Both the position numbers and the translations under genes were made by a program. The notes under the pieces were generated by a model. That model searched no databases. It saw nothing but the letters and a program-made list of their open reading frames with translations, and was not told the DNA's origin. Shown in pieces: positions 5,676 through 27,371 of a stretch of DNA of 39,424 nt (position 1 is its first letter; every line of letters starts with the position of its first letter). Source of the stretch: a virus (Duplodnaviria; Caudoviricetes); the IMG/VR virus record IMGVR_UViG_3300012933_000132, positions 1 to 39,424 of that record; one strand, 5' to 3'.

Positions 5676-5691
5676 GTTACTAGCAAGTTAC
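5676..5691. promoter_or_regulatory. 16-bp dyad, copy 1
   Basis: GTTACT-AGCA-AGTTAC between the promoter and RBS of ORF 5711. Confidence 0.75.
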
Positions 5692-5710
5692 CAAGTAAAG
5701 GAAACGAATC

Positions 5711-6277
5711 ATGACCAAGAAAAAAGAACCAGTTACACCTAGGGCAATCGGAGCTGCATTCGCTAGCGAGCAAGCAGCAATCGGTGCCAAACTGATTGAC
5801 ACTCTCAAGCAAACGATCAGTGCCTACACCGTTGACCAGCCCGCAGAGCTTGCAGAGCTTGTAGAGGGTTACGGGGAGCAAGTCAAAGGCCTTTACAATG
5901 CCAACACTGCCAAGGTCAGAAAGTCAGAATTTAAAAAAGTTGTTGACCATGCTAGCAAGCAAGAGACCCGCCAAGTGTTGTTCAACATCATTGACACCTA
6001 CGAATCGGTTCAAAGCCTAGTCAAAGATTTACGGGCCTTGGAAAGTGGTTCAAAAGTCATTGACGAAGAGGGAAAAATTACAAAAGCCGAAAAGCCAGAG
6101 AGCGAGAAAAGCGAAGACGGAGAGACGGAAACAGTAGTTATCGAATCTGGAATGTCTCAGCCAAGCATGATCGAAGCCCTTGAGCTGATCATGCAAAGTG
6201 CATATGATGCTGGGTATATCAAAGCAGCCGATCTCTTGCAGCAAGCCATGGCAAGCATTGGCAAGGGCGAGAAGTGA
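5711..6277 (+). CDS. Hypothetical early protein
   Basis: 188 aa, AAGGA RBS, first gene of the + arm. Confidence 0.8.
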   Translation: MTKKKEPVTPRAIGAAFASEQAAIGAKLIDTLKQTISAYTVDQPAELAELVEGYGEQVKGLYNANTAKVRKSEFKKVVDHASKQETRQVLFNIIDTYESVQSLVKDLRALESGSKVIDEEGKITKAEKPESEKSEDGETETVVIESGMSQPSMIEALELIMQSAYDAGYIKAADLLQQAMASIGKGEK

Positions 6278-6298
6278 GCAAAGGGAAAAAGGGAGAGG

Positions 6299-6328
6299 TT
6301 GACAGACCTCTCTCCCCTGATGTATACT
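6299..6328 (+). promoter_or_regulatory. sigma70 promoter
   Basis: TTGACA-18 bp-TATACT, intergenic. Confidence 0.6.
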
Positions 6329-6372
6329 GGCTTTACCAGCTGGAAGCGTGTTGTCAAGCACGTTTCTTCGTG

Positions 6373-6388
6373 GTAACTAGCAAGTAAC
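6373..6388. promoter_or_regulatory. 16-bp dyad, copy 2
   Basis: GTAACT-AGCA-AGTAAC just before the RBS of ORF 6407. Confidence 0.75.
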
Positions 6389-6406
6389 TTTTTAAAGGAA
6401 ATTTAA

Positions 6407-6658
6407 ATGTTTGATTTTGTCAAGAGTTTTTTTGTGGCTCGTAAACACACACAAAATACCATCGGTAGGTTTGTGACAGTTTATGCCGCTGGTGTTCCAC
6501 ACAATGGCAAGATTGTTTCAGCTGGGTTTTTTCGTGTAGGGGTAAAGCTTGCACACAGTGGCAACATTGTCCACATCAAGCCCACATTGGTAGCACGTGT
6601 ACATCGTGACAAGAAGCGTTTGGTTACACGTAAGCAACCAGATGCCATTGCAATTTGA
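6407..6658 (+). CDS. Hypothetical basic protein
   Basis: 83 aa, AAGGA RBS. Confidence 0.75.
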   Translation: MFDFVKSFFVARKHTQNTIGRFVTVYAAGVPHNGKIVSAGFFRVGVKLAHSGNIVHIKPTLVARVHRDKKRLVTRKQPDAIAI

Positions 6659-6797
6659 TAGGAAACTATGTAAGCCCATCCATGTGGGCTTACGTGGCCT
6701 GCCTTATGGAGAACTAAATGAATGATAGACAATTTACCCTTTGTTGCCTGCTAGTGATAGCTGGTGTTTTGTTAATGCTGTTTTTGGAGAATACATA

Positions 6798-7430
6798 ATG
6801 CTGTCTCGTACATCTAAGCTAGGCTGTTATAGCTGGAGCTTACAAGCTGTGGATAAGTGTCCTGCGTCACGTGGTGATGACGGTGAGCTTGTTGAGGTTT
6901 GTAAGGGTTGTTATGCCACACAAGGCTTTTATCACATGCCTGATGCCATTTCCTTACGTGAGCGTAATGACAAGGAATGGAGGCAGGACACGTGGGTGTC
7001 AGATATGACACACGCTTTGCGTAAGCAGACCCACTTCAGATGGTTTGATTCTGGGGATATGTACACCGAAGCATTGGCATGGAAAATACATGCTGTTTGT
7101 GAAGCAACGCCATGGTGTAAGCACTGGTTGCCCACACGTATGCACAAGTTCACCAAGTTTTCTAGGGTTATTGATGCCCTGAATGACTTAGACAATGTTG
7201 TTGTTAGGTTTTCTAGTGACAACGTAGGACAACACATTGATGGGCTGTATGTTTCTCTTGTTGTTGACACGTACAAGCATGTAGACAAGACACATGTTTG
7301 TCCCTCTAGTTTGCAGGGAGGCAAATGCCTTACATGCAGGGCTTGTTGGAGCAAGGACACACAGAGCGTGGCCTATGTTGCACATAGCAACAAGATGCAC
7401 AAGATTATTCGTATGAAGGTGGAACAATGA
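6798..7430 (+). CDS. Gp88-like Cys-rich protein
   Basis: SKLGCYSWSL...CP...CKGCYA, RWFDSGD, HWLPTR and terminal C-C-C-CW; GGAG RBS before ATG 6798. Confidence 0.7.
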   Translation: MLSRTSKLGCYSWSLQAVDKCPASRGDDGELVEVCKGCYATQGFYHMPDAISLRERNDKEWRQDTWVSDMTHALRKQTHFRWFDSGDMYTEALAWKIHAVCEATPWCKHWLPTRMHKFTKFSRVIDALNDLDNVVVRFSSDNVGQHIDGLYVSLVVDTYKHVDKTHVCPSSLQGGKCLTCRACWSKDTQSVAYVAHSNKMHKIIRMKVEQ

Positions 7431-7627
7431 AACACGAAGAACAACAAGCTTTTATCGAGACTTACGATTCAAACGTAGGGATGTATTCAAAGATGCAGGT
7501 GGAACGCATTGTTGAGAGTTTTTACAATGGTGAAGATGTGTCATTGCTTGAAGGAGCAGAGCATATCATTGATTGTTTGATGATATGGATGGCTGCTACA
7601 GTTTATCAAATGAAGAAGGATAACTAA
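7427..7627 (+). CDS. Hypothetical protein
   Basis: 66 aa, ATGA-coupled to upstream gene. Confidence 0.7.
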   Translation: MKHEEQQAFIETYDSNVGMYSKMQVERIVESFYNGEDVSLLEGAEHIIDCLMIWMAATVYQMKKDN

Positions 7628-7628
7628 C

Positions 7629-8003
7629 ATGAAAGTGTTTGTATATTTCAACCTACACAAGAAATGTTTTTCTGTTAAGGCCTTGGAGGGTGAGAACAAA
7701 GGCCGTGTCATACAACACACAGACAATATTGTCCTGCTTTTGCCTGAGTTCAAGGTGTCAGAGGCAGGCAGGCAACGTGTCCTACGTGAGAAGCGTAAGA
7801 ACGTACATGCTGGTGTTGCTGGCTGGCTTGATGTTTTTGATTGTCCTATGAACAAAGACTATTACACACAAGTGAGGTATAACCCATACAAATATTCGTC
7901 TTTTGTTACCAATGATGAGACACCTGTGCATAACGGCATGGTTGCCCATTTGACAGTGACAAACAAAACGCCTAAGATTGAGGCTTATTTACAAGGAGAA
8001 TGA
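7629..8003 (+). CDS. Conserved phage hypothetical protein
   Basis: VYFNLHK...VSEAGRQRVLREKRKNVHA signature, recognisable from other phages. Confidence 0.75.
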   Translation: MKVFVYFNLHKKCFSVKALEGENKGRVIQHTDNIVLLLPEFKVSEAGRQRVLREKRKNVHAGVAGWLDVFDCPMNKDYYTQVRYNPYKYSSFVTNDETPVHNGMVAHLTVTNKTPKIEAYLQGE

Positions 8004-8004
8004 C

Positions 8005-8235
8005 ATGCAGACAATTTACAACCCAACCTATGTGTTGGTTTCTTACAACAATATTCCATTCATGGTTGCTGTTGACACAATCACAGTTGACAAGTACAAC
8101 CCATCAACAGGTGGTGAATATGAGGAGGAAGTTCCTTATGTTGAGAGTGTTTTGATGGGTGGACATGAGATGGTTGACCTTCTTCTAGATGAAGTTGTTG
8201 ATGACCTTCTTAAACTAGCGGTTACTAGCGAGTAA
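8005..8235 (+). CDS. Hypothetical protein
   Basis: AAGGAG RBS before ATG 8005. Confidence 0.7.
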   Translation: MQTIYNPTYVLVSYNNIPFMVAVDTITVDKYNPSTGGEYEEEVPYVESVLMGGHEMVDLLLDEVVDDLLKLAVTSE

Positions 8236-8236
8236 C
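8221..8236. promoter_or_regulatory. 16-bp dyad, copy 3
   Basis: GTTACT-AGCG-AGTAAC overlapping a stop codon. Confidence 0.75.
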
Positions 8237-8288
8237 CATGAAGATATTTTTAGCCATCTGTTTATACCTCTTGTTTTATTTCCTCCTG

Positions 8289-8317
8289 TTGACAAGTCAT
8301 TGAAACATGGATATAAT
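8289..8317 (+). promoter_or_regulatory. sigma70 promoter upstream of the replication genes
   Basis: TTGACA-17 bp-TATAAT followed by an AT-rich tract. Confidence 0.85.
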
Positions 8318-8389
8318 AATACATAGATGTATTGATAGTAATTATTAACATAGTATGTAACTTAGTATGTTACTTATAAGGAAGAAGAC

Positions 8390-8581
8390 ATGAGATGTTA
8401 TTGTTGTAATGATGAACTGACTGACTTTGAAGCTACACGTAGAAGCTCCATCACTGGTGGTTTCTTAGATGTTTGTAATGGTTGTTATCATCATATGAAG
8501 GAAGATGTTTGTGCCATTGAACGTACAGACTTGAGACATGAGGATGATGATGTTAATGAGGAACACGATGAAGACATTTGA
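8390..8581 (+). CDS. Small zinc-finger-like protein
   Basis: CYCC...CNGC pairs, acidic tail. Confidence 0.7.
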   Translation: MRCYCCNDELTDFEATRRSSITGGFLDVCNGCYHHMKEDVCAIERTDLRHEDDDVNEEHDEDI

Positions 8582-8759
8582 ACACGAGGCACACATGATG
8601 TTCACCTTGATGGACATACGTGAACTCATTTCACACATAGGGTATGAAGGTTTTCAACAAGCTCTTTCCACTGTGCTTAACGCAAGTAATGAAGCACGAG
8701 AATTTACAGCTGATGAGAAGGCTTTCATGCAAGGTTTGTTAGACAACTGGAAGCACTGA
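8568..8759 (+). CDS. Hypothetical protein
   Basis: GAGG RBS before ATG 8568. Confidence 0.65.
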   Translation: MKTFEHEAHMMFTLMDIRELISHIGYEGFQQALSTVLNASNEAREFTADEKAFMQGLLDNWKH

Positions 8760-9004
8760 TATGACACCGACACCTAGACTACGCTTTGTTGATCGTGGAG
8801 TTCCTGCGCCTGAACATGGTGAAGGCATTTACAAAACTGTTCGCATCCTTCAGCAATGGTTTGTGTATGACATTCAATACCCGCTGACTCGTGGTGAATG
8901 GCGTGATGTTCCTTTGGGGAAAGAAGAATGATTGCTGATCCACTTATGTTTGTTGAATTCTGTATGTGGCTTAGTGGCTGGAGAAAACGTGGTGGAGGTA
9001 GACG

Positions 9005-9364
9005 ATGAGTAAAGAAGCAAACAAAACACAACGTGCTTTGTCGCTGGCGCTTGAGGCGTTGTATTTGGCTGTGCGAATGGAGCCATCGGATTCAATCCAT
9101 GAATGTCCTGAGATGTTTCAAGGGGCTATTACGGCATTAAGAAACGAACTAGCCAAGCAAGAGCAGGGGAGCACTACGTGCGACAAGCCTGTGGCGTGTG
9201 CAAATGGGTGCAGCAAGTTTTTTAGGCATCCGCAACCACAACAACGCACATGGGTTGGGCTGACTGATTTGGAGATGGCAGAGTTTGTAAAAACAATGGA
9301 GCGAGGTAACTTCTTGGTGGCGATATACGACATAGAGAAGAAGCTCAAGGAGAAGAACACATGA
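9005..9364 (+). CDS. Hypothetical protein
   Basis: GGAGG RBS; WVGLTD...IEKKLKEKNT phage-type ending. Confidence 0.7.
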   Translation: MSKEANKTQRALSLALEALYLAVRMEPSDSIHECPEMFQGAITALRNELAKQEQGSTTCDKPVACANGCSKFFRHPQPQQRTWVGLTDLEMAEFVKTMERGNFLVAIYDIEKKLKEKNT

Positions 9365-9525
9365 GTGATGGAGGTAAGGGCAGTGCAAGACGTAAGGAAG
9401 ATGCACAAGCCATATTAAACAATTGGGACAAAATCTTTAATAAGAAACCAGACACACAACAACCAGAGGAAGAACATGGCGTTCGTGAAGACACACCAAC
9501 CATGCCCGAGCTGCGAAAGCAGTGA
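9361..9525 (+). CDS. Small conserved phage protein (not in ORF track)
   Basis: MSDGGKGS...NWDKIF, 54 aa, ATGA-coupled with AGGAG RBS. Confidence 0.6.
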   Translation: MSDGGKGSARRKEDAQAILNNWDKIFNKKPDTQQPEEEHGVREDTPTMPELRKQ

Positions 9526-11083
9526 TGGCCTATCAATTAACGAAGACGGAAGCACCTATTGCTTTGTCTGTAACACACACACTAAGGCTAACAAAATGAT
9601 TGAGGCACCCATGCCATACACCCCGTTGAAAGAGATCAACCAAGAGGCTGTAAATGCCCTTCGTGCGTCCTTTCATAGCCTGCCTACCCCTGCCATTGGT
9701 AGCCGCCGCATTAGCAAGGCAACAGTTGAACGCTATGGTGTTGTTGCTGACACATCACACATCTTGTTTCCTTATTACAAGGAAGACAAACTGTTTGCTG
9801 CAAAGAAACGTACCATTGTAGGCAAAGACTTTCAAACTGTTGGTGAATGGAAAGGCACTGGCTTGTTTGGTCAGCAGTTGTTCACCAAGGGTGGTAAATA
9901 TCTAACCATTGTTGAGGGTGAGTTTGATGCATTGGCTGTGTATCAAATGCTTGGTAGCAAGTGGCCTGTTGTTTCCATTCGTAATGGTGCAGGTGGTGCA
10001 GCTAAGGATTGCAAGGAGCAATACGAGTGGCTGTCTTCCTTTGAGAACATCGTCATTTGTTTTGATGGTGATGAAGCAGGACAGCAGGCAGCTAAGCAGG
10101 TGGCTTCCTTGTTTGCTGGCAAGGCCAAGACATTCAAGCCTGTCGAGGGATATAAGGATGGCTGTGACTTCCTTATTTCTGGCAAAGAGAAGGAGTTCAT
10201 TGACCGCTGGTGGGCAGCTGAGCGTGTTGTACCTGATGGTATTGTCCCTGCCTCCACCCTGTGGGAGAGCGTGTCTAAGCCCTTGGATAAGGCAGAGGTG
10301 TCCTACCCCTATGATGGCCTTAACAAGCTAACCTATGGCATCCGCAAGGGAGAGCTGGTTACAGTGACAGCAGGCTCAGGCTTAGGCAAGAGTCAGTTTC
10401 TACGTGAAGTGATATGGCACATCCTTAGCAAGACACAAGACAACATTGGCTTGATGTTCTTGGAGGAGAGTGTTCGTAAGACAGGCCTATCTTTGATGAG
10501 CTTGGCTGCTAATAAACCTTTGCATCTACCAGACTGTGATGCAACTGAACAGGAAAAACGTGATGCTTTTGACGCAACTCTTGGCAGTGACCGCCTTTAT
10601 ATGTTCGACCATTTTGGTAGTACTAACATTGAGAACATCATCAAGCGAGTCGAAGAATTCTCAGTTGCTTTTGGCTGTGGCTATGTATTTCTTGACCATG
10701 TATCCATTGTTGTAAGTAGCCAAGAGAATGGTGATGAACGTAAAGCATTAGACATGGTGATGACAGAGCTTCGTACCTTGGTGCAGAAGACAGGCATCAG
10801 CCTCATCATTGTGTCCCACCTCAAGCGTCCTTCTGACAAGGGACACGAGGAAGGTGCAGCTACATCACTGGCTCAGCTTCGTGGCTCAGGCTCAATTGCT
10901 CAGCTGTCAGACATGGTGCTTGGCTTGGAGCGTAATGGTCAGGCAGAAGATGAGACAGAACGTAACACCACCAAGGTGAGGGTGTTGAAGAATCGTTTCA
11001 GTGGCATCACTGGCCCAGCATGTAAGCTGTTGTATAATAAACATACAGGAAGGATGACAGAGCGTGACGAAGAAGCCCTTTAA
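9476..11083 (+). CDS. T7 gp4-like primase-helicase
   Basis: CPSC...CFVC zinc domain, TOPRIM EGEFD / FDGDEAG, Walker A AGSGLGKS, LRGSGSIAQLSD, KNRFSG. Confidence 0.95.
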   Translation: MAFVKTHQPCPSCESSDGLSINEDGSTYCFVCNTHTKANKMIEAPMPYTPLKEINQEAVNALRASFHSLPTPAIGSRRISKATVERYGVVADTSHILFPYYKEDKLFAAKKRTIVGKDFQTVGEWKGTGLFGQQLFTKGGKYLTIVEGEFDALAVYQMLGSKWPVVSIRNGAGGAAKDCKEQYEWLSSFENIVICFDGDEAGQQAAKQVASLFAGKAKTFKPVEGYKDGCDFLISGKEKEFIDRWWAAERVVPDGIVPASTLWESVSKPLDKAEVSYPYDGLNKLTYGIRKGELVTVTAGSGLGKSQFLREVIWHILSKTQDNIGLMFLEESVRKTGLSLMSLAANKPLHLPDCDATEQEKRDAFDATLGSDRLYMFDHFGSTNIENIIKRVEEFSVAFGCGYVFLDHVSIVVSSQENGDERKALDMVMTELRTLVQKTGISLIIVSHLKRPSDKGHEEGAATSLAQLRGSGSIAQLSDMVLGLERNGQAEDETERNTTKVRVLKNRFSGITGPACKLLYNKHTGRMTERDEEAL

Positions 11084-11228
11084 AGAAGACACAACATGGC
11101 CCTTCCCTTCCAACCTACCTGCTAAGACAATGCATGGGGTTGAGAGGACAGACAAGGATGGAAACAAATATGTCAAGGTAACTAGCAAGTTACTTGTTCT
11201 TAGGAAGAAGAAGGGAACTACTTCATGA
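11064..11228 (+). CDS. Small hypothetical protein (not in ORF track)
   Basis: 54 aa GTG-start ORF with WPFP; stop is ATGA-coupled to next gene. Confidence 0.5.
   Translation: MTKKPFKEDTTWPFPSNLPAKTMHGVERTDKDGNKYVKVTSKLLVLRKKKGTTS
11178..11193. promoter_or_regulatory. 16-bp dyad, copy 4
   Basis: GTAACT-AGCA-AGTTAC. Confidence 0.75.
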
Positions 11229-11500
11229 AACAAGACATCATTGAGATGGCTAGACAGGCTGGCCTATCGAATCCGCTTTGGATTGAAAACGATTACGCAA
11301 TCATTGAAGCATTTGCCAAACTGGTGGAAGCACACACTCGTGGACAGATATTTAAACCTGATTGGGACAACTATCGCCAAGGCTTGATTGATGGCGCAAC
11401 AGCAGAGCGTGAGGCGTGTATTCAAATTCAAGAAGATTGGCAATATACATACGCTAATGATTTAGTGCAGAAAATCAGAGCAAGAGGGGAGCAGCAATGA
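11225..11500 (+). CDS. Hypothetical protein
   Basis: IIEMARQAG...AEREAC...IRARGE phage-type hypothetical. Confidence 0.7.
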   Translation: MKQDIIEMARQAGLSNPLWIENDYAIIEAFAKLVEAHTRGQIFKPDWDNYRQGLIDGATAEREACIQIQEDWQYTYANDLVQKIRARGEQQ

Positions 11501-11646
11501 TTGAACAAGCTATTGTTGCAGCAACAGGTATTGGATATGCCATCGTAGGTGTGTTACAATGGAGCAAGGGAGAGCTTTCCAATGGTATGATTTGGGTAGG
11601 CTATGCCTTTGCACAGGTTGGTTTGTTTTTAAATTTGAAAGTGTAA
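11497..11646 (+). CDS. Small two-TM membrane protein (not in ORF track)
   Basis: 49 aa hydrophobic, ATGA-coupled, GGAG RBS. Confidence 0.6.
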   Translation: MIEQAIVAATGIGYAIVGVLQWSKGELSNGMIWVGYAFAQVGLFLNLKV

Positions 11647-11647
11647 A

Positions 11648-11833
11648 ATGTATTTTGAACACAACAAAGTGTCTATAACTTTTGAACTTGTAATGCACAA
11701 AACTTCTAGTGATGCACATAGAGCAGCTATAATGAGCCACATTTGTAACAAGCTTCGTCTTATTCTTGATGAAGAAAAACATTTGATTCACACACCACCA
11801 CAGATACACTACCAAAGGGTTGACAATGCGTAA
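11648..11833 (+). CDS. Hypothetical protein
   Basis: Fills the gap between coupled genes. Confidence 0.55.
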   Translation: MYFEHNKVSITFELVMHKTSSDAHRAAIMSHICNKLRLILDEEKHLIHTPPQIHYQRVDNA

Positions 11834-12248
11834 CGTAGAACTATGGCACAAACGTGCAAGACCAGAGCCAACAGATGCTGACATGCAGGTGCAGCTAGGC
11901 TGTCACATCGAAGAGATTGTTGAGATGTTTGATTCTCTTGATCTTCACCACAGCTGGGCTGCATTGGCTGACGAGCTAAGCCTCTTGGCTACACGCTTGA
12001 AACAAGGAGAGACAATTGTTTCTATCAAAGATCGTGAAGCGTTCCTCGACAGCTTGGCTGATCAGGTTGTTACTGCTATTGGCGTTGGGCATTGTGCTAA
12101 GATGCGCACAGCCGAGGCAATTGAAGAGGTAAACCGTAGTAACTGGAGTAAGTTTGACCAAGAGACAGGGCAACCAATCTTCTCTCCCTATGGTAAGATA
12201 ACCAAAGGCCCTAACTATCGTCCACCATCCTTGAAAGAGTTTATCTAA
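11826..12248 (+). CDS. MazG-like / PRA-PH nucleotide pyrophosphohydrolase
   Basis: EEIVE...DSLAD acidic motifs; VNRSNWSK...GKITKGPNY.PP.L. Confidence 0.75.
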   Translation: MRNVELWHKRARPEPTDADMQVQLGCHIEEIVEMFDSLDLHHSWAALADELSLLATRLKQGETIVSIKDREAFLDSLADQVVTAIGVGHCAKMRTAEAIEEVNRSNWSKFDQETGQPIFSPYGKITKGPNYRPPSLKEFI

Positions 12249-12439
12249 TGAAGCAGCTTACAATGACAGTTGTGTTAGAATTTGATGAAGAGATCATGTG
12301 TGATTGGGAAGAAGAAGGACATCGTGATTGGTTCTTTAATGAAGTGCTTAATCCTCAATGGCTTTCTCTTATTTCTGGAAAAATTGGAGATGAAGTTGGT
12401 AGAATAGTTTCTGTTGATATTAAGAAAGACAATCTATGA
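12248..12439 (+). CDS. Hypothetical protein
   Basis: TAATG-coupled 63 aa ORF. Confidence 0.6.
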   Translation: MKQLTMTVVLEFDEEIMCDWEEEGHRDWFFNEVLNPQWLSLISGKIGDEVGRIVSVDIKKDNL

Positions 12440-12867: not shown

Positions 12868-14654
12868 AACTCTATCTAGACATTGAGACAACAACAGATC
12901 ATAAAAAGATTTGGTGTTGCTTCACCTATGATGAAACCAATGGACATGTATGTCACACAAAACCGGATACACTCACACCCTTAATCGCAAGCTCCGAAAC
13001 AGTGATCGCACACAACTTGATAGGCTTCGATGGGCCAGTCCTGAAGAAGTGTTGGGGCGTGACGATACCAGCGAAGAAGGCGAAAGATACCTTGATCTTG
13101 TCTCGTCTATACAATCCCAATATCGAAGGAGGCCACAGCTTGAAAGCATGGGGCGAAAGAGTGGGAGAGAAGAAGATTGATTATGAACAACGATGGAAAG
13201 AGACAGGCTTAGAAGGCAACTGCTATGACAACCCTTCTCTTCCATTGATGTTTGAGTATTGTGAACAAGACGTAGCTGTTCTTATTAAGGTGGAGCAGCT
13301 CATTGATAAGATGCTAGACCAAGACAAGTTCTCTCCTGAGTGTCGTAAGCTTGAGCATGATGTTGCAATCATCATTCAGAAACAACATGAACATGGGTTT
13401 AAACTTGACATTCAGAAAGCTCAGGGCCTATTGGCAACTCTTAGTGGTAAGATGGTGGATATTGAAAATCAATTACAAACTATCTTCCCTCCTGTCATCG
13501 AAGAGATGAAGAAGCCAGCTTACTGGTTACTAGGTAGTTACCAAGCAGAGACAAAGACAGAGCTTAAGCAAGTGCTAAAGGCTGCTGGTCTCAAGCCTTC
13601 TCTTGCTGATGATGCTGTTGCTGGGCCTATGAAAACTAAGAGCATCCCCTTCAACCCCGGCTCTCGACAACAGATTGCTGAACGGTTGCAAGGACTTGGT
13701 GTTAAGTTCTCTAAGACTACAGACAAAGGCTCCATCATTGTGGACGAGAAGGTGCTAGAGAAGATTGATCTGCCAGAAGCTAAGGCTCTGTTGGAATATC
13801 TGATGTTGCAGAAGCGTGTAGCTCAGGTGTCTAGCTGGCTTGAGGAAGTGAAAGAAGATGGTAGGGTACATGGACGAGTGAACACCAATGGTGCTGTCAC
13901 TGGACGTATGACACACAGCTCTCCTAACATGGCTCAAGTTCCTAACAGTGGTAGTGTGTATGGCCCTGAGTGTCGTGAGCTGTGGACTGTGGACAAAGAC
14001 AATGTGTTAGTTGGTGCTGATGCTAGTGGCCTTGAGCTGCGTATGCTGGCACATTACATGAAGGACGAAGGCTATGTCAGAACAGTTTGTGATGGAAGTA
14101 GCAAAGACGGTACGGATGTCCACACAGTTAACCAACGAGCTGCTGGACTTGCTACACGAGATGCAGCAAAGACGTTCATCTATGCCTTCCTCTATGGTGC
14201 AGGAGATGCAAAGATTGGTAGCATCGTTGGAGGTAGCTCAGTGCAGGGTGCAAAACTTAAGGCTAAGTTCCTTGAACAGACACCAGCCCTGAATGTTCTA
14301 ATCAAACGTGTTCATGCAGCTGCTGACCAAGGCTTTGTGCGTGGCTTAGATGGCAGGAAGATATGGGTACGTAGTTCTCATGCTGCCCTTAACAGCCTGC
14401 TTCAAGGAGCTGGTGCAATTGTGATGAAGAAAGCGTTGGTACTTCTTAGCAAACACCTACATAAACAAAAGATTGTGCATGGCTTCTGTGCTAATGTGCA
14501 TGACGAATGGCAGATTGAAACAAAGAAACAATATGCTGATGTTGTAGGAAAACTTGCTGTACAATCCATCGAAGAGGCAGGTAAGGAACTAGGTTTGTTC
14601 TGCCCTGTATCTGGTGAATATAATGTTGGCTCTAACTGGAAGGAAACACATTGA
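12864..14654 (+). CDS. Family A DNA polymerase with 3'-5' exonuclease
   Basis: ExoI LDIET, ExoII HNLIGFD, motif A DASGLELR, motif B RDAAKTFIYAFLYG, motif C VHDE. Confidence 0.95.
   Translation: MKLYLDIETTTDHKKIWCCFTYDETNGHVCHTKPDTLTPLIASSETVIAHNLIGFDGPVLKKCWGVTIPAKKAKDTLILSRLYNPNIEGGHSLKAWGERVGEKKIDYEQRWKETGLEGNCYDNPSLPLMFEYCEQDVAVLIKVEQLIDKMLDQDKFSPECRKLEHDVAIIIQKQHEHGFKLDIQKAQGLLATLSGKMVDIENQLQTIFPPVIEEMKKPAYWLLGSYQAETKTELKQVLKAAGLKPSLADDAVAGPMKTKSIPFNPGSRQQIAERLQGLGVKFSKTTDKGSIIVDEKVLEKIDLPEAKALLEYLMLQKRVAQVSSWLEEVKEDGRVHGRVNTNGAVTGRMTHSSPNMAQVPNSGSVYGPECRELWTVDKDNVLVGADASGLELRMLAHYMKDEGYVRTVCDGSSKDGTDVHTVNQRAAGLATRDAAKTFIYAFLYGAGDAKIGSIVGGSSVQGAKLKAKFLEQTPALNVLIKRVHAAADQGFVRGLDGRKIWVRSSHAALNSLLQGAGAIVMKKALVLLSKHLHKQKIVHGFCANVHDEWQIETKKQYADVVGKLAVQSIEEAGKELGLFCPVSGEYNVGSNWKETH
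13526..13541. promoter_or_regulatory. 16-bp dyad, copy 5 (inside polymerase gene)
   Basis: GTTACT-AGGT-AGTTAC; 19/21 identity with copy 1 including flanks. Confidence 0.7.
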
Positions 14655-14851: not shown

Positions 14852-14898
14852 TGTATGACAGGGAGGAAAGACTCTCATAAACTAAACAAAGGAAATAT

Positions 14899-18219: not shown

Positions 18220-18225
18220 CAATAT

Positions 18226-18302: not shown

Positions 18303-18315
18303 AACAAAGGAAAAC

Positions 18316-18984
18316 ATGAAAAAGCTTTTACTTTTATTGTCACTAGCAAGCTGCATTATCATCAATGCAGATGCTAAAGGTGGCGGCTCTTCTGGAGGGG
18401 GCGGTCATGGTGGTGGTGGTCACGCTAGTTCAGGTGGTGGACGAAGCATGTCATCATCGTCTGTGTCACGTCCTGCACCTGCACCATCTGTAGCTCCTCG
18501 TCCGTCTACATCTCCTGCTCCAACAGCAGCTCCTAAGACAACTACAACAACTACCACAACAACACGATCTGTGAACACTTCTTCACGCTATGTGTCAGGC
18601 GGTGGTGTTGCTTACGGCGGCATGGGAATGGGTTATGGTTACAGTAATGGCCTATTAACAGGCATGATTATTGGTAATATGATGCACCCACATAACACTG
18701 TGGTGTATGCTGGAGGAGGCGCACACAGTAACAACGCTTTGCTCTATCCTGATGGTCGTGTTGTTAATCAACAAGGGCAGCAAGTTGGTACATACCAGAA
18801 CGGTCAGTTCACTGAGACACCAAACGGTCCTGTAGTTGCACAGCCCGTCCCTCAAGATGCTTTACACCCTCCTGCTGAACGTGAGAAAACAGTGAGTGAA
18901 TGGATGAAAGACATTTTATTATTCACAGCACTAATCTTGGTCATTGTTATTCTAATCATCTTTTTGCGAGGTCTTTTCTTATGA
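18316..18984 (+). CDS. Exported, membrane-anchored Gly/Ser/Thr-rich protein
   Basis: Signal peptide ending ADA, low-complexity segments, C-terminal TM helix. Confidence 0.75.
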   Translation: MKKLLLLLSLASCIIINADAKGGGSSGGGGHGGGGHASSGGGRSMSSSSVSRPAPAPSVAPRPSTSPAPTAAPKTTTTTTTTTRSVNTSSRYVSGGGVAYGGMGMGYGYSNGLLTGMIIGNMMHPHNTVVYAGGGAHSNNALLYPDGRVVNQQGQQVGTYQNGQFTETPNGPVVAQPVPQDALHPPAEREKTVSEWMKDILLFTALILVIVILIIFLRGLFL

Positions 18985-19301
18985 TTAACTTTCTCATTGC
19001 TGTGGCGCTCATCCTATTTGTCATTATTCTTGTCACTTTCTTGGTACGCATTATGAATGAAACTGTTTATTTTGATGGTGGTGTTGAAGAAGAAACTATC
19101 ACCACTACAACCACCACTACAACCACCGTTGTGGAGGAGCCTCCTATTATTACAATTGATCAGTTACCCCCTCTTGAACGTAAGTTTAAAGAGAATGGTC
19201 AACCGTTTTGTATTGATCCAGCAGACAACACTGAATGGCTGTTAAATACATACGATGACATGTATGAAGATGCAAGCGGTAAATGGTGGAAACTTATTTA
19301 A
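18981..19301 (+). CDS. Membrane protein with poly-Thr linker
   Basis: N-terminal TM, TTTTTTTTT, ATGA-coupled. Confidence 0.65.
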   Translation: MINFLIAVALILFVIILVTFLVRIMNETVYFDGGVEEETITTTTTTTTTVVEEPPIITIDQLPPLERKFKENGQPFCIDPADNTEWLLNTYDDMYEDASGKWWKLI

Positions 19302-19310
19302 AGGAAAGAC

Positions 19311-20722: not shown

Positions 20723-22620
20723 AATATATGGGAAGTTATGAGCAATACATCGCTAAGAGTCGATATGCTCGTTACATGGATAGTGAACAACGCCGTGAGG
20801 ACTGGGAAGAAACCGTTTCACGTTACTTTGACTTCATGTCAGAGCAATTGAAGAAGAACCACGACTACACGCTGAGCGACACAATGCGTGATGAGTTGCA
20901 GAGTGCCGTGATTAACATGGAGGTGATGCCCTCTATGCGTAGTTTGATGACAGCAGGGAAGGCATTGGAGCGTGATAACACAGCTGGTTACAATTGCAGT
21001 TATTTGCCTATTGATGATGTTAAAGCCTTTGACGAGGCTATGTATATTCTTCTGTGCGGTACTGGTGTTGGTTTCTCTGTTGAGCGTCAGAGCATTCAAA
21101 AGCTGCCCGACATTCCAGAAGAGCTGTTTGAAAGCAACACGACTGTTGTAGTGTCAGACAGCAAAGAAGGCTGGGCTAAGAGCTTGCGTCAAATCATTGC
21201 CTTGCTCTATGCAGGCGAAGTCCCAAAATGGGATGTGTCTAAGGTTCGTCCTAAAGGTGCTCGCTTGAAGACCTTCGGTGGTCGTGCTTCTGGTCCCGAG
21301 CCATTGATTGAGTTGTTTCAGTTTGTTTCTGCCATCTTCAAAGGTGCTAAGGGCCGTAAACTGAATAGCCTTGAGTGTCACGACATCATGTGTAAGATTG
21401 GTGAAGTTGTTGTTGTAGGCGGTGTACGCCGCTCAGCCATGATTAGCTTGTCTAACCTGTCTGATGATCGTATGCGTCACGCTAAGAGCGGTGCATGGTG
21501 GGAGAAGAACGGTCAACGTGCCTTGGCTAACAACAGTGCCTGCTATACAGAGCGTCCTGATGTTGGCATCTTCATGCAGGAATGGAACTCTTTGTATGAA
21601 AGCAAGAGTGGTGAGCGTGGTATCTTCAATCGTGAAGCAGCTAAGAAAGTGGTGAAACAAAATGGAAGACGCAATAGTGACTTTGATTTCGGGACTAATC
21701 CCTGTTCTGAAATCATTCTTCGACCATATCAATTCTGTAATCTTTCCGAAATCATTGTTCGTTCTGATGACACAGTGGATAGCTTGAAACGTAAGGCACG
21801 TTTAGCAACCATCTTAGGTACATTCCAGAGCACATTGACCCACTTCCCATATCTACGTAAGGTGTGGCAGAAGAACACTGAGGAAGAGCGTTTGCTGGGT
21901 GTATCAATGACAGGCATTCTTGACAATGCTTTGTTGAACAACCCTGATAGTCCTAAACTGGAAGGCATTCTGAATGAACTTAAAGCTGTATGTGTCGCAA
22001 CTAATGGGATTATGGCTGAGCATCTTGGTATTCCTGCCAGTGCTGCCATTACTTGTGTTAAGCCTAGTGGTACTGTCAGTCAGCTCACTGATAGTGCATC
22101 TGGTATTCATGCCCGTCATGCTGAGTATTATTTTAGACGAGTTCGTGGAGACAAGAAAGACCCATTGACACAACATCTGATTGATGCAGGCGTAACAGCT
22201 GAGCCATGTGTTATGAAGCCAGAGCAAACTGTGGTGTTCACCTTCCCTAAGAAGGCCCCTCAAGGTGCTATGCTTCGTAAAGACCTGACAGCTATGCAAC
22301 ACTTGAAGCTGTGGCTTGCCTATCAACGTCACTGGTGTGAGCATAAGCCTTCTGTTACCATCTCTGTCTCTGAACATGAGTGGCCTGAAGTTGGTGCATG
22401 GGTATGGAAACACTTCGATGAAATGTCTGGTGTCTCCTTCTTGCCTTATGATGGTGGCAGTTATCGACAGGCCCCATACGAAGACTGTACAAAAGAACAG
22501 TATGAAGCCCTGTTAGCTACAACACCATCCACCATTGATTGGAATAGTCTGATTGAAATGGATGATAATGTTGAAGGTGTACAGACCTTGGCTTGTACAG
22601 CAGCAGGTTGTGAAATCTAA
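20719..22620 (+). CDS. nrdJ: Class II (adenosylcobalamin-dependent) ribonucleotide reductase
   Basis: YNCSY, GTNPCSEI, TCVKPSGT, C-terminal CTAAGCEI; no adjacent beta subunit. Confidence 0.9.
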   Translation: MKYMGSYEQYIAKSRYARYMDSEQRREDWEETVSRYFDFMSEQLKKNHDYTLSDTMRDELQSAVINMEVMPSMRSLMTAGKALERDNTAGYNCSYLPIDDVKAFDEAMYILLCGTGVGFSVERQSIQKLPDIPEELFESNTTVVVSDSKEGWAKSLRQIIALLYAGEVPKWDVSKVRPKGARLKTFGGRASGPEPLIELFQFVSAIFKGAKGRKLNSLECHDIMCKIGEVVVVGGVRRSAMISLSNLSDDRMRHAKSGAWWEKNGQRALANNSACYTERPDVGIFMQEWNSLYESKSGERGIFNREAAKKVVKQNGRRNSDFDFGTNPCSEIILRPYQFCNLSEIIVRSDDTVDSLKRKARLATILGTFQSTLTHFPYLRKVWQKNTEEERLLGVSMTGILDNALLNNPDSPKLEGILNELKAVCVATNGIMAEHLGIPASAAITCVKPSGTVSQLTDSASGIHARHAEYYFRRVRGDKKDPLTQHLIDAGVTAEPCVMKPEQTVVFTFPKKAPQGAMLRKDLTAMQHLKLWLAYQRHWCEHKPSVTISVSEHEWPEVGAWVWKHFDEMSGVSFLPYDGGSYRQAPYEDCTKEQYEALLATTPSTIDWNSLIEMDDNVEGVQTLACTAAGCEI

Positions 22621-22831
22621 TAAAAGAAACACACCAGTTCCACCGAAAACAGGATGGCCTCCGGGCCTCTTGCAAGATGACTCTAGTGAGTTATCTAGGT
22701 GGTTTGCTAGTCGTCTTGACGCAAGAGAAACATTAAGGAGATTTATCAGAGATGAAAACAATCGTGTACACGAAAGACAATTGTCCAGCGTGTGTGCAAC
22801 TGAAGACAAAGCTGGTCTTGGAAGGGACTAG
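22610..22831 (+). CDS. Hypothetical protein
   Basis: GWPPGLLQDD...LSRWFAS; fills the gap to glutaredoxin. Confidence 0.5.
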   Translation: MKSNKRNTPVPPKTGWPPGLLQDDSSELSRWFASRLDARETLRRFIRDENNRVHERQLSSVCATEDKAGLGRD

Positions 22832-22934
22832 CTTTGTTGAGGTTCACTTAGGCAGAGACATGACAATCGAAGACTTCAAAGCGAAGTTCCCCACTGTTCG
22901 TTCAGTACCACACATGGAGACTATTGATGACTGA
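22752..22934 (+). CDS. Glutaredoxin
   Basis: VYTKDNCPAC...RSVP; next to RNR. Confidence 0.85.
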   Translation: MKTIVYTKDNCPACVQLKTKLVLEGTSFVEVHLGRDMTIEDFKAKFPTVRSVPHMETIDD

Positions 22935-23142
22935 AAAATATGGCCTATTAAAAGTAATCTGTTTATTGCTTATCACAGCTAAACTGTTTGTTGGTTATGA
23001 CATCACATGGTTTGAGACATTCATTCCAATCTATGTAGCTTTTGGTATGGAAGCTTTAAAGATGTTGACAGAGCAATTAGAAGTGTACTTAGAGAAAATG
23101 AAAGAGACACTGGAAAAGAAAGGTAAACATGATAACAATTAA
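22924..23142 (+). CDS. Small membrane protein
   Basis: Hydrophobic N-terminal half, ITWF..F.P. Confidence 0.6.
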   Translation: MMTEKYGLLKVICLLLITAKLFVGYDITWFETFIPIYVAFGMEALKMLTEQLEVYLEKMKETLEKKGKHDNN

Positions 23143-23305
23143 CCCACGCTTAGGCATTGGCCTTGACATTGAATATAATGATGATGTATGTCACATCGTT
23201 GAGTTTGATAACAGCGACAAGGAGGAAGTGGTTGGCTTTATGGGCATCATCATTAAGCTACCATTCTTCTCAATATACATTGGTGACTTCTTTGAGTTAG
23301 ACTAA
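23129..23305 (+). CDS. Hypothetical protein (not in ORF track)
   Basis: 58 aa, AAGG RBS, ends at the terminator. Confidence 0.55.
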   Translation: MITINPRLGIGLDIEYNDDVCHIVEFDNSDKEEVVGFMGIIIKLPFFSIYIGDFFELD

Positions 23306-23336
23306 AAAGAAAGGGGACTATTAAGTCCCCTTTTTT
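23304..23336. terminator. Bidirectional rho-independent terminator
   Basis: A-tract, AAGGGGACT-atta-AGTCCCCTT stem, T-tract, at the convergence of the two arms. Confidence 0.9.
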
Positions 23337-25290
23337 ATTGCCTGTATCCAATGGCTTCTTGTGCTCCATACTTCTCAAGGTAGGCGTTATACCATTGCCT
23401 TGCAAAGTCTGGGTTGTCTTTGTATAGTTCCATAGTGAGCTGCTTAGTAGCTGCACTACGTGACATACTGACAATCTTCTGTACTGCCACTTCCTTCTGA
23501 TACTTATCTAGCTTCTCAAATTGTGGATTGTTAAACGCTTGACTCAAGCTGTTAGACAACACACCACCAGAGATTTGTTTATATCTAGAATATTGTGTAC
23601 TATCTAGTTCAACACCACCAATCTTCTTGTTAGCACCAACAATCTCTACACCAATCTCTTCAAGCTTTCTCTCAATGGCAGTGGGTGTAGTAACCTTAAT
23701 ACCAAGCAAAGCGTTAGACAAGCTGGCCTGCTCTGGCTCACCTGTCTTGGTGTATTTAACTGGTAGCTCTTCACGCATACCGGGGATACGGCTCTGTGCC
23801 TTCTCAACAAACGTCATAGCTTCACGCTCTGTTGGGTCTAACACCTTGGCTGTAGTGGCTGCAATGGCTGGTACAAGAGCGTTAGCATACTGAGCAAAGA
23901 AGCCACCACCGTGTCTCTCTGGGTCATACATAGCAAACAAGGCCTTGCTCAAGCCTTCCATAAAACTCTTCTCAAGAATGTTGTTCTTAACAGCAGCAGC
24001 ATAGGCCAACAAGAAGTCTTGTGCATTCTTGTCTGGGTTCTTATTCTCTTTATATTCCTTGAGAATAGACGAAGCATCAACAGCCATACCAAACACTGTG
24101 GCTAATGGTTCAATACGTTGATAGCTCACCCATTCATCACCCACCTTCATAGAGAACTTAGGGCGACCATCCTTTGGATCAGAGCCTGTAATGAGTCCTT
24201 GGTTAACAGCAGCATCCAATGCAATGGCAGCACCCATGCCCAGTGCCTGCTTAGCAATGAGCTTGCCACGTTGCTCAGGCATGTTCATAGCAAAGTCAAA
24301 CTTCCCTGTATTACCAATCTCTTTCTTACCTGCCAAGCCAATGCCGGGAATGTAAGACACACCTTCTTTGATGATGTTGTATGGGGTTTTGATAAAGGGT
24401 ACAATGAGGGCAGACAATGGATGCTTGGCTCTGAACTGAGCAGCTGCCTGTGCTACACCTGTAAGCTTCTCTTGGAACACAGCTTCCTTAGCAAAGTTCT
24501 GTACGTTCCACAGGTTGTTACCACCAAGCTTATCTGTCAGCTGTTGTTGCCAGTTATCCACAGTGAGTCTGTCTTTGGTAAGCTTTGTATAAATCTCACC
24601 TGCATCACCACCTGTCTGCTTAGCCATACGTGCAGCTTCTCTGTAAGCAATGGCATTAAACTCCATGCGTCTAAAGACAGCCTTGTTAAACTCGTCAATG
24701 AAGATACCAACACGAGTAGGAGTTCTAACAACTTCACCGAGTGTGCCACCCAATGCTTTGTTATTCACATCATACAAGTCACCCTTCAACATCTCTGCTC
24801 TTTCAGCTGAAATGAAGTTCTCGTTGATAAACTTCTGGAACTTAGCATCTGTCATACCCATAGCTTGAGCAGACATGTTAATATCAAGAGGACGACCAGA
24901 GACAAAGCCTTGCTTAGCAAAAGCCATAGCCTCGCTAAAGCCCTGCATAATACCCCTGAGCATAGCTACCCCTTCACCTGTAGTTTTATCGCTCTTGCTG
25001 AGGCTTCTAGGTAGGGCTGCTTCGATCTCTCTAAGCACTGGCTGCAAGAACATCTGTGTACCGGCAGACAAAGCGTTAACAGCGATAGTGCCGGGGCCTG
25101 ATACATAACTGTTCACTACATATTCAGAGGCAATACGACCAGCAATGTGTGGTTCCTTTGCCATCTTGGTTTGTAGCTCAGCTAACAGGTTGGCTTTCTG
25201 TTGTGGTGTTAAGTCTTCAAACTTATCAATGAGTAATTTCTTGTCTGCTAGTTCTCTGAACCAAACAGCACATGCTTCTGAGTATGCCAT
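23335..25290 (-). CDS. Large internal virion (ejection) protein
   Basis: 651 aa, last gene of structural arm; PFIKTPYN and WVSYQRIEP motifs; AAGGA RBS before ATG 25290. Confidence 0.65.
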   Translation of the reverse strand: MAYSEACAVWFRELADKKLLIDKFEDLTPQQKANLLAELQTKMAKEPHIAGRIASEYVVNSYVSGPGTIAVNALSAGTQMFLQPVLREIEAALPRSLSKSDKTTGEGVAMLRGIMQGFSEAMAFAKQGFVSGRPLDINMSAQAMGMTDAKFQKFINENFISAERAEMLKGDLYDVNNKALGGTLGEVVRTPTRVGIFIDEFNKAVFRRMEFNAIAYREAARMAKQTGGDAGEIYTKLTKDRLTVDNWQQQLTDKLGGNNLWNVQNFAKEAVFQEKLTGVAQAAAQFRAKHPLSALIVPFIKTPYNIIKEGVSYIPGIGLAGKKEIGNTGKFDFAMNMPEQRGKLIAKQALGMGAAIALDAAVNQGLITGSDPKDGRPKFSMKVGDEWVSYQRIEPLATVFGMAVDASSILKEYKENKNPDKNAQDFLLAYAAAVKNNILEKSFMEGLSKALFAMYDPERHGGGFFAQYANALVPAIAATTAKVLDPTEREAMTFVEKAQSRIPGMREELPVKYTKTGEPEQASLSNALLGIKVTTPTAIERKLEEIGVEIVGANKKIGGVELDSTQYSRYKQISGGVLSNSLSQAFNNPQFEKLDKYQKEVAVQKIVSMSRSAATKQLTMELYKDNPDFARQWYNAYLEKYGAQEAIGYRQ

Positions 25291-25298
25291 GTATATCC

Positions 25299-27371
25299 TT
25301 ATAAACAAGTACGACCGGGAGTAGCAAAACCTTTTACTTCTTTCCCTTCGCTTATTCTATTATACGCTAATTTAAAAGCATTCAACTGATCAGATGCTCT
25401 AGTTCTTTGTCCTTGGAAAATGGACATAACACCAAGAGGAACTTGTGAGCGATGCATAATGGTTTGTTCTGCTTCTGGTGTGAGTTGACCAAGGCTTCTT
25501 AGTCTGTTATACTCATCAATCTGAGCACCAAGGAAAGCCTGAGCTTCTTTGTATTGAGGCATGAACGCTGCAATCTCTTCTCTGTTCCAGCTCTTGTCAG
25601 CATTCTGCAAGGCCCAATCAAGAACCCCACCTTCTTCTGCTGTCATACGTGCTGCTTGCTTCTCACCCAATGCAGCTGTAGCTTCTAGGCTACCACCCAT
25701 TCTGCCCCTGCCGCGCAGCTCTCTGCCTGTCCTACCTGTAGCAGCAACAGCCTTCATGTGCATGTCGTTAATAGCCTTATCAACAGACACAGGGTCTGCA
25801 TCAATGCGACCACGGAAGGCAGGGTCAAACACCTTCTCTGGGTTTGTTTCAAAAGGAACATCACCAGCCAGCTTTAGATAGGGGTCAGTACGCATAGAGC
25901 CTACTGAGCCAGCCATGCCAGCCCTGTTCAATGGGTCAGCAGCAACAGGCGCTTTACCCAAAGCAGCATTAGCTTCTTCCATTGTTCTAAAGCCATTACG
26001 CTCTAATGCAGCCTGCACTTCAGGGGTAACCTGTTGCGTAGAAACAACACTTGCTCTAGGAGGAGGAGCCAATGCAGCAGGAGGAACTTGTCCTTCTCTG
26101 GTGATCACTGGCTGCTCAGCAAAGCGAGGAGCTGTCTTTGTTTCCACCTGTACCAGAGGCTCAGGTAACTTGCCAGTAACCTGTCTCAGCTTAATCTCTT
26201 GGTCTTGAGCAAGCTTAGCTTTGAGCATATCAATCTCTGCTTGCTTAGCCTTGAGGTCAGTGTCTAATGAATAGCCTTTGAACAATGAAGCAACTTGTGG
26301 AGCTTCCTTAACATCAACAACCTTCTTTCCTTGGAACAAGGCAGGTGTTTGTTTTGTTGGTTGTGATTTAGTTGGAGACACCAAGCCTGTCATCTTTGAT
26401 GGCAGGTTATCAGCTGTCTGTACTGGAGCCTTAGTCTCACCTTGCAACAAAGAAGCTACTTGTTTCTCTGCTGTTTCTGTTACATCAACTGTTGTTCTTT
26501 CTTCTGACAGCTTTGTAATGTCTCTCTCAAGAGAAGCAACACGTTGGTCAATGAGGGTTTTCTCTAAGACAGACAGTGGTTTATAATCATACTGTGCATC
26601 CTTGAACACACGCTCATTAGTAACTGGCTCATCAATTGCTTTAGCAACATCTGACAACGCTGCGTCTGTAGCCTGCTTGCCTTGAGGAATGTCAGACAGA
26701 GGGACATCAGCCTTCTTTGTTAAGTAATTAACAATAGATTCAGCACCCTTACCAAGCACACCGCCCAGAGCAAAGCCAGCAACAGTGCCTACGCCTGCGC
26801 CTTTAGCACGGTCAGCAGAGAAGAAACCAGTGTCACCACCTTCTTTGAGGACAGGCTCTAAGAAGCCACCAAGAGCGCCTTGTGCAGCACCTTGTCTAGC
26901 CATAGTGCCAACGAGTGTAGCCCCACGTAATGGAGCAACAGCCACAGCAGGCAGGTTAATAGGGTCAGCAATGGCTCCAGCAAACTCAGCTGTACCACCA
27001 ATGTATGGATTGTTAGCAGAAGCAATCTCGGCTGCTTGTCTCTCAGCACGTAGACGTTCTGTGTCAGCTGTACCAGCCATTTGAGCAATGCCCTTGATGC
27101 TGCTACCAGCACTCTCAACAAAGCGTTTAACACCAGCAGAGAAGCCTGTGTTCCCTGTTAGGTGTGCTAAGATTTGTTGATCTGTATATCCTTCAGCTCT
27201 AGCGCCTGCAACATCAAAGCCTTTCTTACTAGCTAAGTAGTCAGCAACTTGTGCAGGAGAATAGCCTTCTTGTAAAGCTCCAGTAAGATCAAAGCCACCA
27301 GTAGGAGCCACATCTGTAGCCCCCACTGATGACATCATTTGCTCTTCTGGACTGAGCATTAGTTCAGCCAT
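25299..27371 (-). CDS. Internal virion protein
   Basis: 690 aa, Ala/Gly-rich N-terminal helices with repeated EGY(S/T)..Q motif. Confidence 0.6.
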   Translation of the reverse strand: MAELMLSPEEQMMSSVGATDVAPTGGFDLTGALQEGYSPAQVADYLASKKGFDVAGARAEGYTDQQILAHLTGNTGFSAGVKRFVESAGSSIKGIAQMAGTADTERLRAERQAAEIASANNPYIGGTAEFAGAIADPINLPAVAVAPLRGATLVGTMARQGAAQGALGGFLEPVLKEGGDTGFFSADRAKGAGVGTVAGFALGGVLGKGAESIVNYLTKKADVPLSDIPQGKQATDAALSDVAKAIDEPVTNERVFKDAQYDYKPLSVLEKTLIDQRVASLERDITKLSEERTTVDVTETAEKQVASLLQGETKAPVQTADNLPSKMTGLVSPTKSQPTKQTPALFQGKKVVDVKEAPQVASLFKGYSLDTDLKAKQAEIDMLKAKLAQDQEIKLRQVTGKLPEPLVQVETKTAPRFAEQPVITREGQVPPAALAPPPRASVVSTQQVTPEVQAALERNGFRTMEEANAALGKAPVAADPLNRAGMAGSVGSMRTDPYLKLAGDVPFETNPEKVFDPAFRGRIDADPVSVDKAINDMHMKAVAATGRTGRELRGRGRMGGSLEATAALGEKQAARMTAEEGGVLDWALQNADKSWNREEIAAFMPQYKEAQAFLGAQIDEYNRLRSLGQLTPEAEQTIMHRSQVPLGVMSIFQGQRTRASDQLNAFKLAYNRISEGKEVKGFATPGRTCL
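26165..26180. promoter_or_regulatory. 16-bp dyad, copy 7 (inside virion gene)
   Basis: Reads GTTACT-GGCA-AGTTAC on the - strand. Confidence 0.7.

Follow-up and report, generated by a model that had tools for sequence, protein, structure and literature searches.

A dispersed dyad in a 39.4-kb phage contig and its co-occurrence with the first early gene, ORF 5711

We describe a dyad repeat, GTWACT-N4-AGTWAC (W being A or T), which is present in seven exact copies, beginning at positions 5676, 6373, 8221, 11178, 13526, 15598 and 26165, in a 39.4-kb phage contig (IMG/VR record IMGVR_UViG_3300012933_000132; the analysed stretch is the entire record of 39,424 nucleotides and is called the window below). 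The sites are exact, specific to one phage clade, selected at the level of the DNA and gained or lost together with a module reaching from the early genes to the primase gene, and the open reading frame (ORF) that tracks them is ORF 5711, the first early gene. Based on this co-occurrence and on structure predictions, we consider the chances to be about even that the dyads are operators of the ORF 5711 protein, which would act through them by self-limiting repression and by roadblocks to transcription.

The dyad and its selection as DNA

All seven copies, together with the flanking G and the spacers given in an earlier sequence-only reading of this DNA, were confirmed, as was its estimate that about 0.01 copies are expected by chance, with shuffled sequence giving a mean of 0.01 copies and a maximum of 1 in 100 shuffles against the 7 observed. 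No one-mismatch copy occurs within the window. Each GTWAC half is itself pseudo-palindromic and the two halves lie 11 bp apart; the window holds 88 such half-sites, and the 7 pairs at the 11-bp period are the seven dyads themselves. With a profile made from relatives the seven copies score 24.5 to 29.3 bits and the next-best position 3.4. The 12 fixed positions of the site form the dyad. As for the spacer, which had been described as biased toward AGCA, the individual spacers are as described, and the bias is really that of a near-palindrome with the symmetrised consensus AGCT, giving the ideal site GGTWACTAGCTAGTWACC. The copies are as follows.

5676..5691: copy 1, in the ORF 5711 leader, after the extended -10 element and before the ribosome-binding site
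6373..6388: copy 2, in the ORF 6407 leader, on the downstream side of predicted promoter P2
8221..8236: copy 3, overlapping the ORF 7978 stop codon, with the -35 element of predicted promoter P3 following 53 bp downstream
11178..11193: copy 4, within the 54-codon ORF 11064-11228, after the primase/helicase gene
13526..13541: copy 5, in the family A DNA polymerase gene, within a variable insertion at which motif-free relatives have different residues
15598..15613: copy 6, in the exonuclease gene, the codons at motif positions being fixed across the clade
26165..26180: copy 7, in the late-arm ORF 25299-27371, the identical 16-mer being present in two close relatives
5290..5304: decayed eighth copy, intact in relatives L001, L002 and L003

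The density of copies drops with distance from the early promoter, the late arm being nearly empty; ORF 25299-27371, which holds copy 7, may encode an internal virion protein, to judge from its position only. The first two copies had been placed between promoter and ribosome-binding site of the first early genes, which is the position of copy 1; copy 2 lies downstream of P2 in the leader of ORF 6407.

The excess of copies is also seen over codon-preserving shuffles. When codons were resampled with the proteins fixed (36.9 kb of coding DNA, 2000 runs), at most 2 coding copies arose against the 4 observed. The exonuclease copy alone reappeared in 109 of the 2000 runs, and thus its peptide partly predisposes to the dyad. 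The intragenic copies, which had been said to lie in different reading frames, occupy three different codon phases.

The motif is conserved in relatives, as had been anticipated. Among ten near-complete relatives (at least 90%), nine carry 5 to 10 copies and none carries the reversed control pattern, while the complete relative G004 has zero copies in 41,095 bp; one further record has 13 copies in 32 kb. Counted over 427 kb of sequence from partly overlapping loci, exact copies number 179 and one-mismatch copies 5, with 4.7 of the latter expected by chance. Reduced synonymous variation, a further expectation of the sequence-only reading, is seen at the exonuclease copy in 31 distinct alleles from motif-positive loci, where Arg84, Asn85 and Leu87 use one codon each, Val88 is encoded by GTA or GTT only, the variation being that of the free W, and Tyr86, in the spacer, varies; the leucines neighbouring the site use 4-5 codons. 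Among the 50 invariant exonuclease residues with at least four codons, five are codon-fixed and two of those five are in the site. Motif-free relatives have other residues both at the exonuclease site and at the polymerase copy. In other subclades the polymerase copy is found in another loop, where three variants of the peptide occur; it is missing from four motif-positive loci. There is also turnover, the window having lost the copy at 5290-5304 that three close relatives retain. The sites occupy places of low constraint, namely loops, linkers and gene ends. Judged from these comparisons, the sites are selected as DNA, also within genes.

It is noted separately that the polymerase insertion around copy 5 (window 13500-13650) is missing in most relatives and is replaced by a variant in one metagenome run. 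Apparent dyads in L018 and L020 were rejected, being coding hexapeptide repeats instead.

As to the form in which the site is read, 105 of 201 distinct sites have complementary W positions, which is no more than chance, the stem letters are invariant with no covariation, the folding energies of the seven window copies range from -0.4 to -8.4 kcal/mol with a stem mismatch in 5 of the 7, and copies occur upstream of promoters too. Since the W pairing is at the chance level, the energies are variable and copies lie upstream of promoters, the evidence favours recognition of double-stranded DNA by a protein with two-fold symmetry, and the idea of a site for a dimeric protein is supported. It is true that every copy can form a short stem with a 4-nt loop, that two of them fold well, and that the spacer is somewhat asymmetric when read along early transcription (AA 58 and TT 22 of 147 early-arm sites, a mild strand bias of the free positions, uncorrected for kinship and strand composition). 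However, in RNA hairpin signals of the boxB or RNase III type the pairing is kept by compensatory change, which is not what the invariant stems and the 105 of 201 show here, and it is therefore highly improbable that the dyad acts as an RNA or single-stranded DNA hairpin, as an antitermination or processing signal.

The first early gene and the module that carries the sites

The first two genes of the early arm are as follows.

5711..6277, + strand: ORF 5711, first early gene, encoding an orphan-family protein of 188 aa; candidate binder
6407..6658, + strand: ORF 6407, second early gene, encoding a protein of 83 aa without a family; a weaker candidate for the binder

Co-occurrence was examined in 34 distinct contigs that were fetched by their polymerase or primase and that span the small terminase to the primase. 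Motif and ORF 5711 are both present in 12 of these and both absent in 22, with no contig having only one of the two. ORF 6407 is likewise present in all 12 motif-positive contigs; ORFs 6407, 6741 and 7629 are also present in 1, 2 and 1 motif-free contigs, respectively, and the motif-positive L156 is without ORFs 6741 and 7629. All 32 viral loci with the ORF 5711 gene carry at least one site, as do all 38 metagenome loci, and in 32 of the 33 metagenome loci with enough flank a site lies at most 450 bp upstream, the most constant site being that in or near the leader of ORF 5711 itself. G004 has neither ORF 5711 nor sites, and G004 and L009 have other early cassettes. The earlier suggestion of ORF 5711 as a candidate binder is supported by this co-occurrence and by the dimer prediction given below. 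The like suggestion for ORF 16615 is rejected, for this ORF is present at 65-67% identity in the motif-free L009 and L012.

The history of the genome parts was traced with a quick tree for the polymerase and with FastTree for the primase, exonuclease and terminase (28, 26 and 17 hand-picked rows). In the polymerase, exonuclease and terminase trees the motif-free G004, together with the partial L009/L024 and L010, groups with the subclade of the window, whereas in the primase tree the same motif-free records are the sister group of a monophyletic motif clade. This conflict between trees, together with the lack of both the gene and the sites in G004, implies that the sites, even those in distal genes, follow the early-to-primase module and not the genes that contain them.

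With the module as the unit, another of its products might read the sites, be it ORF 6407 or an allelic form of the primase/helicase or ORF 8390. The presence of ORF 6407 in every motif-positive contig and the monophyly of the motif clade in the primase tree are in its favour. But a distant ORF 6407 homolog (31%) is present in the motif-free L074, ORF 6407 is far less conserved (about 35-59%, distant members) than the N-terminal domain (N-domain) of ORF 5711 while the motif is invariant, and T7-type primases recognise short single-stranded words, so that we regard such a reader as improbable.

A dimeric regulator or nucleoid factor of the host might also read the sites, with the early cassette just tracking the host. 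Early cassettes would often follow the host, and the tail-fibre tips are not common to the window and a motif-free relative. The sites of a host regulon, whether LexA-, GlnR- or matS-like, are expected as copies clustered in one bacterial lineage, whereas the strict 18-mer has 21 single matches in GTDB, in unrelated bacterial taxa and with no cluster. In IMG/VR it has 49 loci; 6 of them are unrelated singletons, and the other 43, which have homologs of window genes, belong to this clade. Moreover, the tail genes of the motif-free G004 are 85% identical to those of the window over 2.6 kb, closer than those of most motif-positive relatives. A host reader is therefore quite improbable.

Coming back to ORF 5711 as the reader, its protein has 176 homologs, those in the matches listed (120) all being at least 55% identical, with a single full-length representative at 50% clustering. 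Relatives were found neither in GTDB genomes nor in cultured phages (only matches at E=0.3), and profile scans gave no match to a known family, to a helix-turn-helix, to Rep or to other DNA-binding proteins. In the ESM Atlas there are only unnamed viral clusters for ORF 5711 (0.90-0.92) and leads below 0.9 for ORF 6407. ParB families are absent in profile scans of the window ORFs and of 57 ORF 5711 homologs.

AlphaFold predicts six helices and a hairpin (the N-domain, with a predicted local distance difference test score, pLDDT, of 92.9), a disordered acidic linker and a two-helix tail. The homodimer is predicted with a score of 0.82 against 0.00 for the best of 3 controls, the runs sharing at least 87% of contacts with pLDDT of at least 81; in calibration the mark used for this score was reached by 20 of 30 solved pairs and by 1 of 23 single chains. 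The predicted interface sets the invariant G14, A15, F17 and A18 against G53 and Y54 of the partner, and the invariant K68, R70, K71, K75 and K76 lie on helix 64-81, mostly outside it. ORF 5711 may bind the dyad DNA. Foldseek gave no match at E<=0.001 for the full-length model against PDB and viral libraries and none for the N-domain alone; the best full-length result (VIA; Z 6.8, root-mean-square deviation 3.0, 51 aligned) lies on the C-terminal hairpin, and the best for the N-domain (Z 6.1, root-mean-square deviation 3.2, 78 aligned) is a designed bundle. Failed searches of this kind do not establish the fold as new. A possible likeness to the core-binding domain of tyrosine recombinases was not borne out by the profile and fold searches.

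Note also where dyads fall relative to this gene. In L007 (10389), L157, L253 and their kin a dyad lies in the codons of the acidic linker (~+412) and none in the next leader (+660), and other subclades have the dyad in the next leader but not in the linker, or in neither.

Transcription, other possible roles and the setting of the contig

Strong predicted sigma-70-type promoters head both arms.

5628..5653, + strand: predicted promoter P1, TTGACA, 14 nt, extended -10
6299..6328, + strand: predicted promoter P2, 11/12 consensus
8289..8317, + strand: predicted promoter P3, 12/12 consensus
4979..5007, - strand: predicted late-arm promoter, 12/12, with a leader dyad in many relatives and none in the window

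Among 166 distinct sites, 89 lie at most 130 bp from a consensus promoter, against 13% of random positions, and the flanking of promoters by about half of the sites tilts the interpretation toward transcription control. Sites follow P1 closely and P2 at roughly 40-60 bp, and precede P3 by 1-53 bp; many relatives also have one in the late-promoter leader, and others stand beside the convergent terminator. Two copies about 93-107 bp apart bracket P1 in many relatives, an arrangement that is compatible with a repression loop.

Two observations on the promoters themselves may be added. P1 is missed by a standard promoter scan because its TTGACA stands only 14 nt before the extended -10, a spacing that is 14 nt in several relatives and 19-20 nt in others. 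The -35 box of P2 is the centre of a strong inverted repeat (window 6282-6320, -20 kcal/mol), whose arms change together across relatives while TTGACA stays; it may be the ORF 5711 terminator merged with the promoter that follows, or else a site of processing.

Based on the operator reading, each subunit of an ORF 5711 dimer would take one GTWAC half, the two halves being one helical turn apart, by means of the invariant basic helix. As the protein accumulates, its binding in the leader of ORF 5711 would give negative feedback; binding beside P2, P3, the late promoter and the convergent terminator (the latter two in relatives) would lower output; and the intragenic copies would serve as roadblocks to elongation in the manner of stoperators. 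The net effect would be a turn-down of early and middle transcription by the host polymerase, of the type for which Cro and Ner are the models, in a phage for which neither an RNA polymerase nor an integrase was detected.

Several points weigh against this. The co-occurrence table amounts to about one or two independent evolutionary events, and the module that brings ORF 5711 also carries ORF 6407 or a primase allele along. ORF 5711 has no match among known DNA-binding families, and the charges of its N-domain balance overall (19 basic and 19 acidic residues). Recognition seems to be all-or-none, as seen in the near lack of one-mismatch copies beyond chance, which is unlike graded operator sets. 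A promoter core is overlapped by just 1 of the 166 sites; the window copies at 11178, 13526, 15598 and 26165 have no strong consensus promoter nearby; and the proximity to promoters is partly due to the sites lying in intergenic DNA.

Some of these points would also suit a physical job for the bound ORF 5711 protein, that is, to tether, organise, protect or pace the entry of the first-entering arm, for which matS and p6 are comparators of the organiser type. The fall in density away from the early promoter, the placement in loops, linkers and gene ends, and the alternation between subclades of the linker copy and the next-leader copy, as if coverage mattered, are in line with it, as is a promoter proximity that would reflect free intergenic space with hardly any overlap of a core. 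However, the spacing is irregular (about 0.1-5.6 kb along the arm in complete relatives), the polymerase copy is gone without replacement in several motif-positive phages and the most constant site is that at the gene's own leader, which make a physical job possible but unlikely.

A wider version, which we regard as distinctly unlikely, is that a new-fold ORF 5711 dimer silences the whole genome, with dormancy and kin-only immunity. Silencing would act on the early promoters, on the replication genes through roadblocks and, in relatives, also on the late promoter, a non-integrating phage would be held dormant in starved freshwater cells, and swappable pairs of first gene and palindrome (e.g. 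those of L054/L056/L059, described below) would be an immunity code of 'lytic' aquatic phages. Kin exclusion alone cannot account for the amino-acid cost of self-silencing sites, so that the benefit would have to fall on the carrier.

Other dyads are present in the fetched set. The early region of L054 (1968-2478), L056 and L059 (1342-1850) has four copies of GGTAAC-N2-GTTACC, and some 40 bp after the first of them comes an unrelated first gene of 156 aa. Its product resembles that of ORF 5711 in layout, being helical with a basic helix, an acidic linker and a helical tail; as a homolog of ORF 5711 it was rejected, there being no significant profile match (probability 0.5%). L208, L209 and L216 have 8-9 copies of GTTTCCA-N-TGGAAAC within a longer repeat; in L216 (946-2400) the copies inspected lie at early gene boundaries, and L217 and L225 also carry this dyad. 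A faint by-eye likeness of the L216 first protein to ORF 5711 is not significant (0.2%, E 0.27). L037 (3334-6193) and L058 (690-1332) have several copies of TGTTGT-N6-ACAACA, with an AT-rich spacer, in early non-coding DNA. Many lineages in the set, including the nearest motif-free ones, have no dyad above threshold.

As for the contig, two gene arms converge on it and its genes include those of a T7-type primase/helicase, a family A polymerase, an exonuclease, ThyX, a ribonucleotide reductase, a terminase, a portal and tail proteins. Profile scans of its 65 ORFs gave no RNA polymerase, integrase, repressor, ParB or partition family, and the parS-like reading suggested earlier is accordingly not borne out. 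The scans gave no major capsid or scaffold family either, and because no major capsid family was detected, a segment between the two contig ends (1 and 39424) is probably missing. For the same reason the remark that the phage has no visible repressor or integrase holds among the 65 ORFs and is restricted to the sequenced part. A close relative is represented by contigs of 13.5 kb and 23.9 kb in a freshwater metagenome run, from which the genome ends were not recovered; no RNA dataset was among the sequencing runs listed. The nearest cultured polymerases, about 50% identical, are those of Pelagibacter phages HTVC103P and HTVC104P.

At 18316-19301 the window has two ORFs with low-complexity Gly/Ser/Thr-rich stretches and membrane-like ends, missing in the close relative L011. 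The more distant, motif-free L190 has, by reading of its sequence, an apparent tyrosine recombinase upstream of the primase (5570-6652).

Comparison with known systems

In its proposed action the array comes nearest to the stoperators of Cluster A mycobacteriophages (PMC6550527). These number 20-30 per genome, are 13-mers that lack symmetry and are oriented with transcription, and are read by the helix-turn-helix repressor of a temperate phage. The present array is similar in that one phage protein would act at many dispersed sites, at early promoters and within genes, with site and protein co-varying between lineages. It differs in that the site is a dyad in 5-13 copies, with no recognisable helix-turn-helix and no integrase or parABS detected in the window. 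Because the site is neither asymmetric nor oriented with transcription, its mild strand bias being confined to the free positions, the array is not a member of the Cluster A stoperator system.

KorB of plasmid RK2 (PMC11790492), a ParB-family CTPase clamp, has its operators OB a few bp to >1 kb from promoters; a variable distance between operator and target promoter is also found here, but no ParB-type family is among the window ORFs. Repression from sites in coding sequence, as proposed here, is described for Gp36 of the lytic phage D29 (PMC12266134), which represses from intragenic sites, and for C.Kpn2I of a restriction-modification system (PMC6237814), which is a roadblock to elongation in its own gene. 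D29 Gp36, however, is MerR-like and has GC-rich direct repeats at two loci, whereas the sites here are dyads.

In form the nearest likeness is to the dyad arrays of Cluster O mycobacteriophages and Microbacterium cluster EG phages, with which the present array has in common the invariant inverted arms, the free spacer, some genic copies and no detectable repressor or integrase, while the published consensuses differ from this motif. In Cluster O (PMC4351075) a 17-bp dyad repeat is present in 34 copies, transcription control was judged unlikely and no protein was tied to it. As in Cluster O, invariant arms and a variable spacer are dispersed in an apparently lytic genome, about a third lie in genes, there are almost no one-mismatch copies and a dimeric binder is proposed. 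Unlike in Cluster O, the sequence is another one, there are 5-13 copies instead of 34, promoters are flanked by about half of the sites and the motif is tracked by a single orphan gene. Cluster EG phages (PMC7302621) have 18-bp inverted repeats, 8-10 at one end, with no repressor or integrase; these typically lie 14-22 bp upstream of start codons, as copies 1 and 2 do here. By contrast, the EG repeats are almost all intergenic and are kept where the surrounding genes differ, whereas here many are intragenic and the sites vanish when the first gene is replaced.

A literature search, conducted mostly beyond subscription papers and without supplements, gave no paper on this motif or clade. Dyad arrays as such are already published, for Cluster O and EG, and what is new is this motif and protein family. 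For the published arrays of lytic phages no binder or function has been identified, whereas here the array comes with one small candidate protein of no known family, a strict 12-letter site and relatives that are natural knock-outs. If ORF 5711 indeed binds the sites, it would add a DNA-reading domain without a match in the searches run, and the pair would be a compact repressor and operator, likely orthogonal to the known ones.

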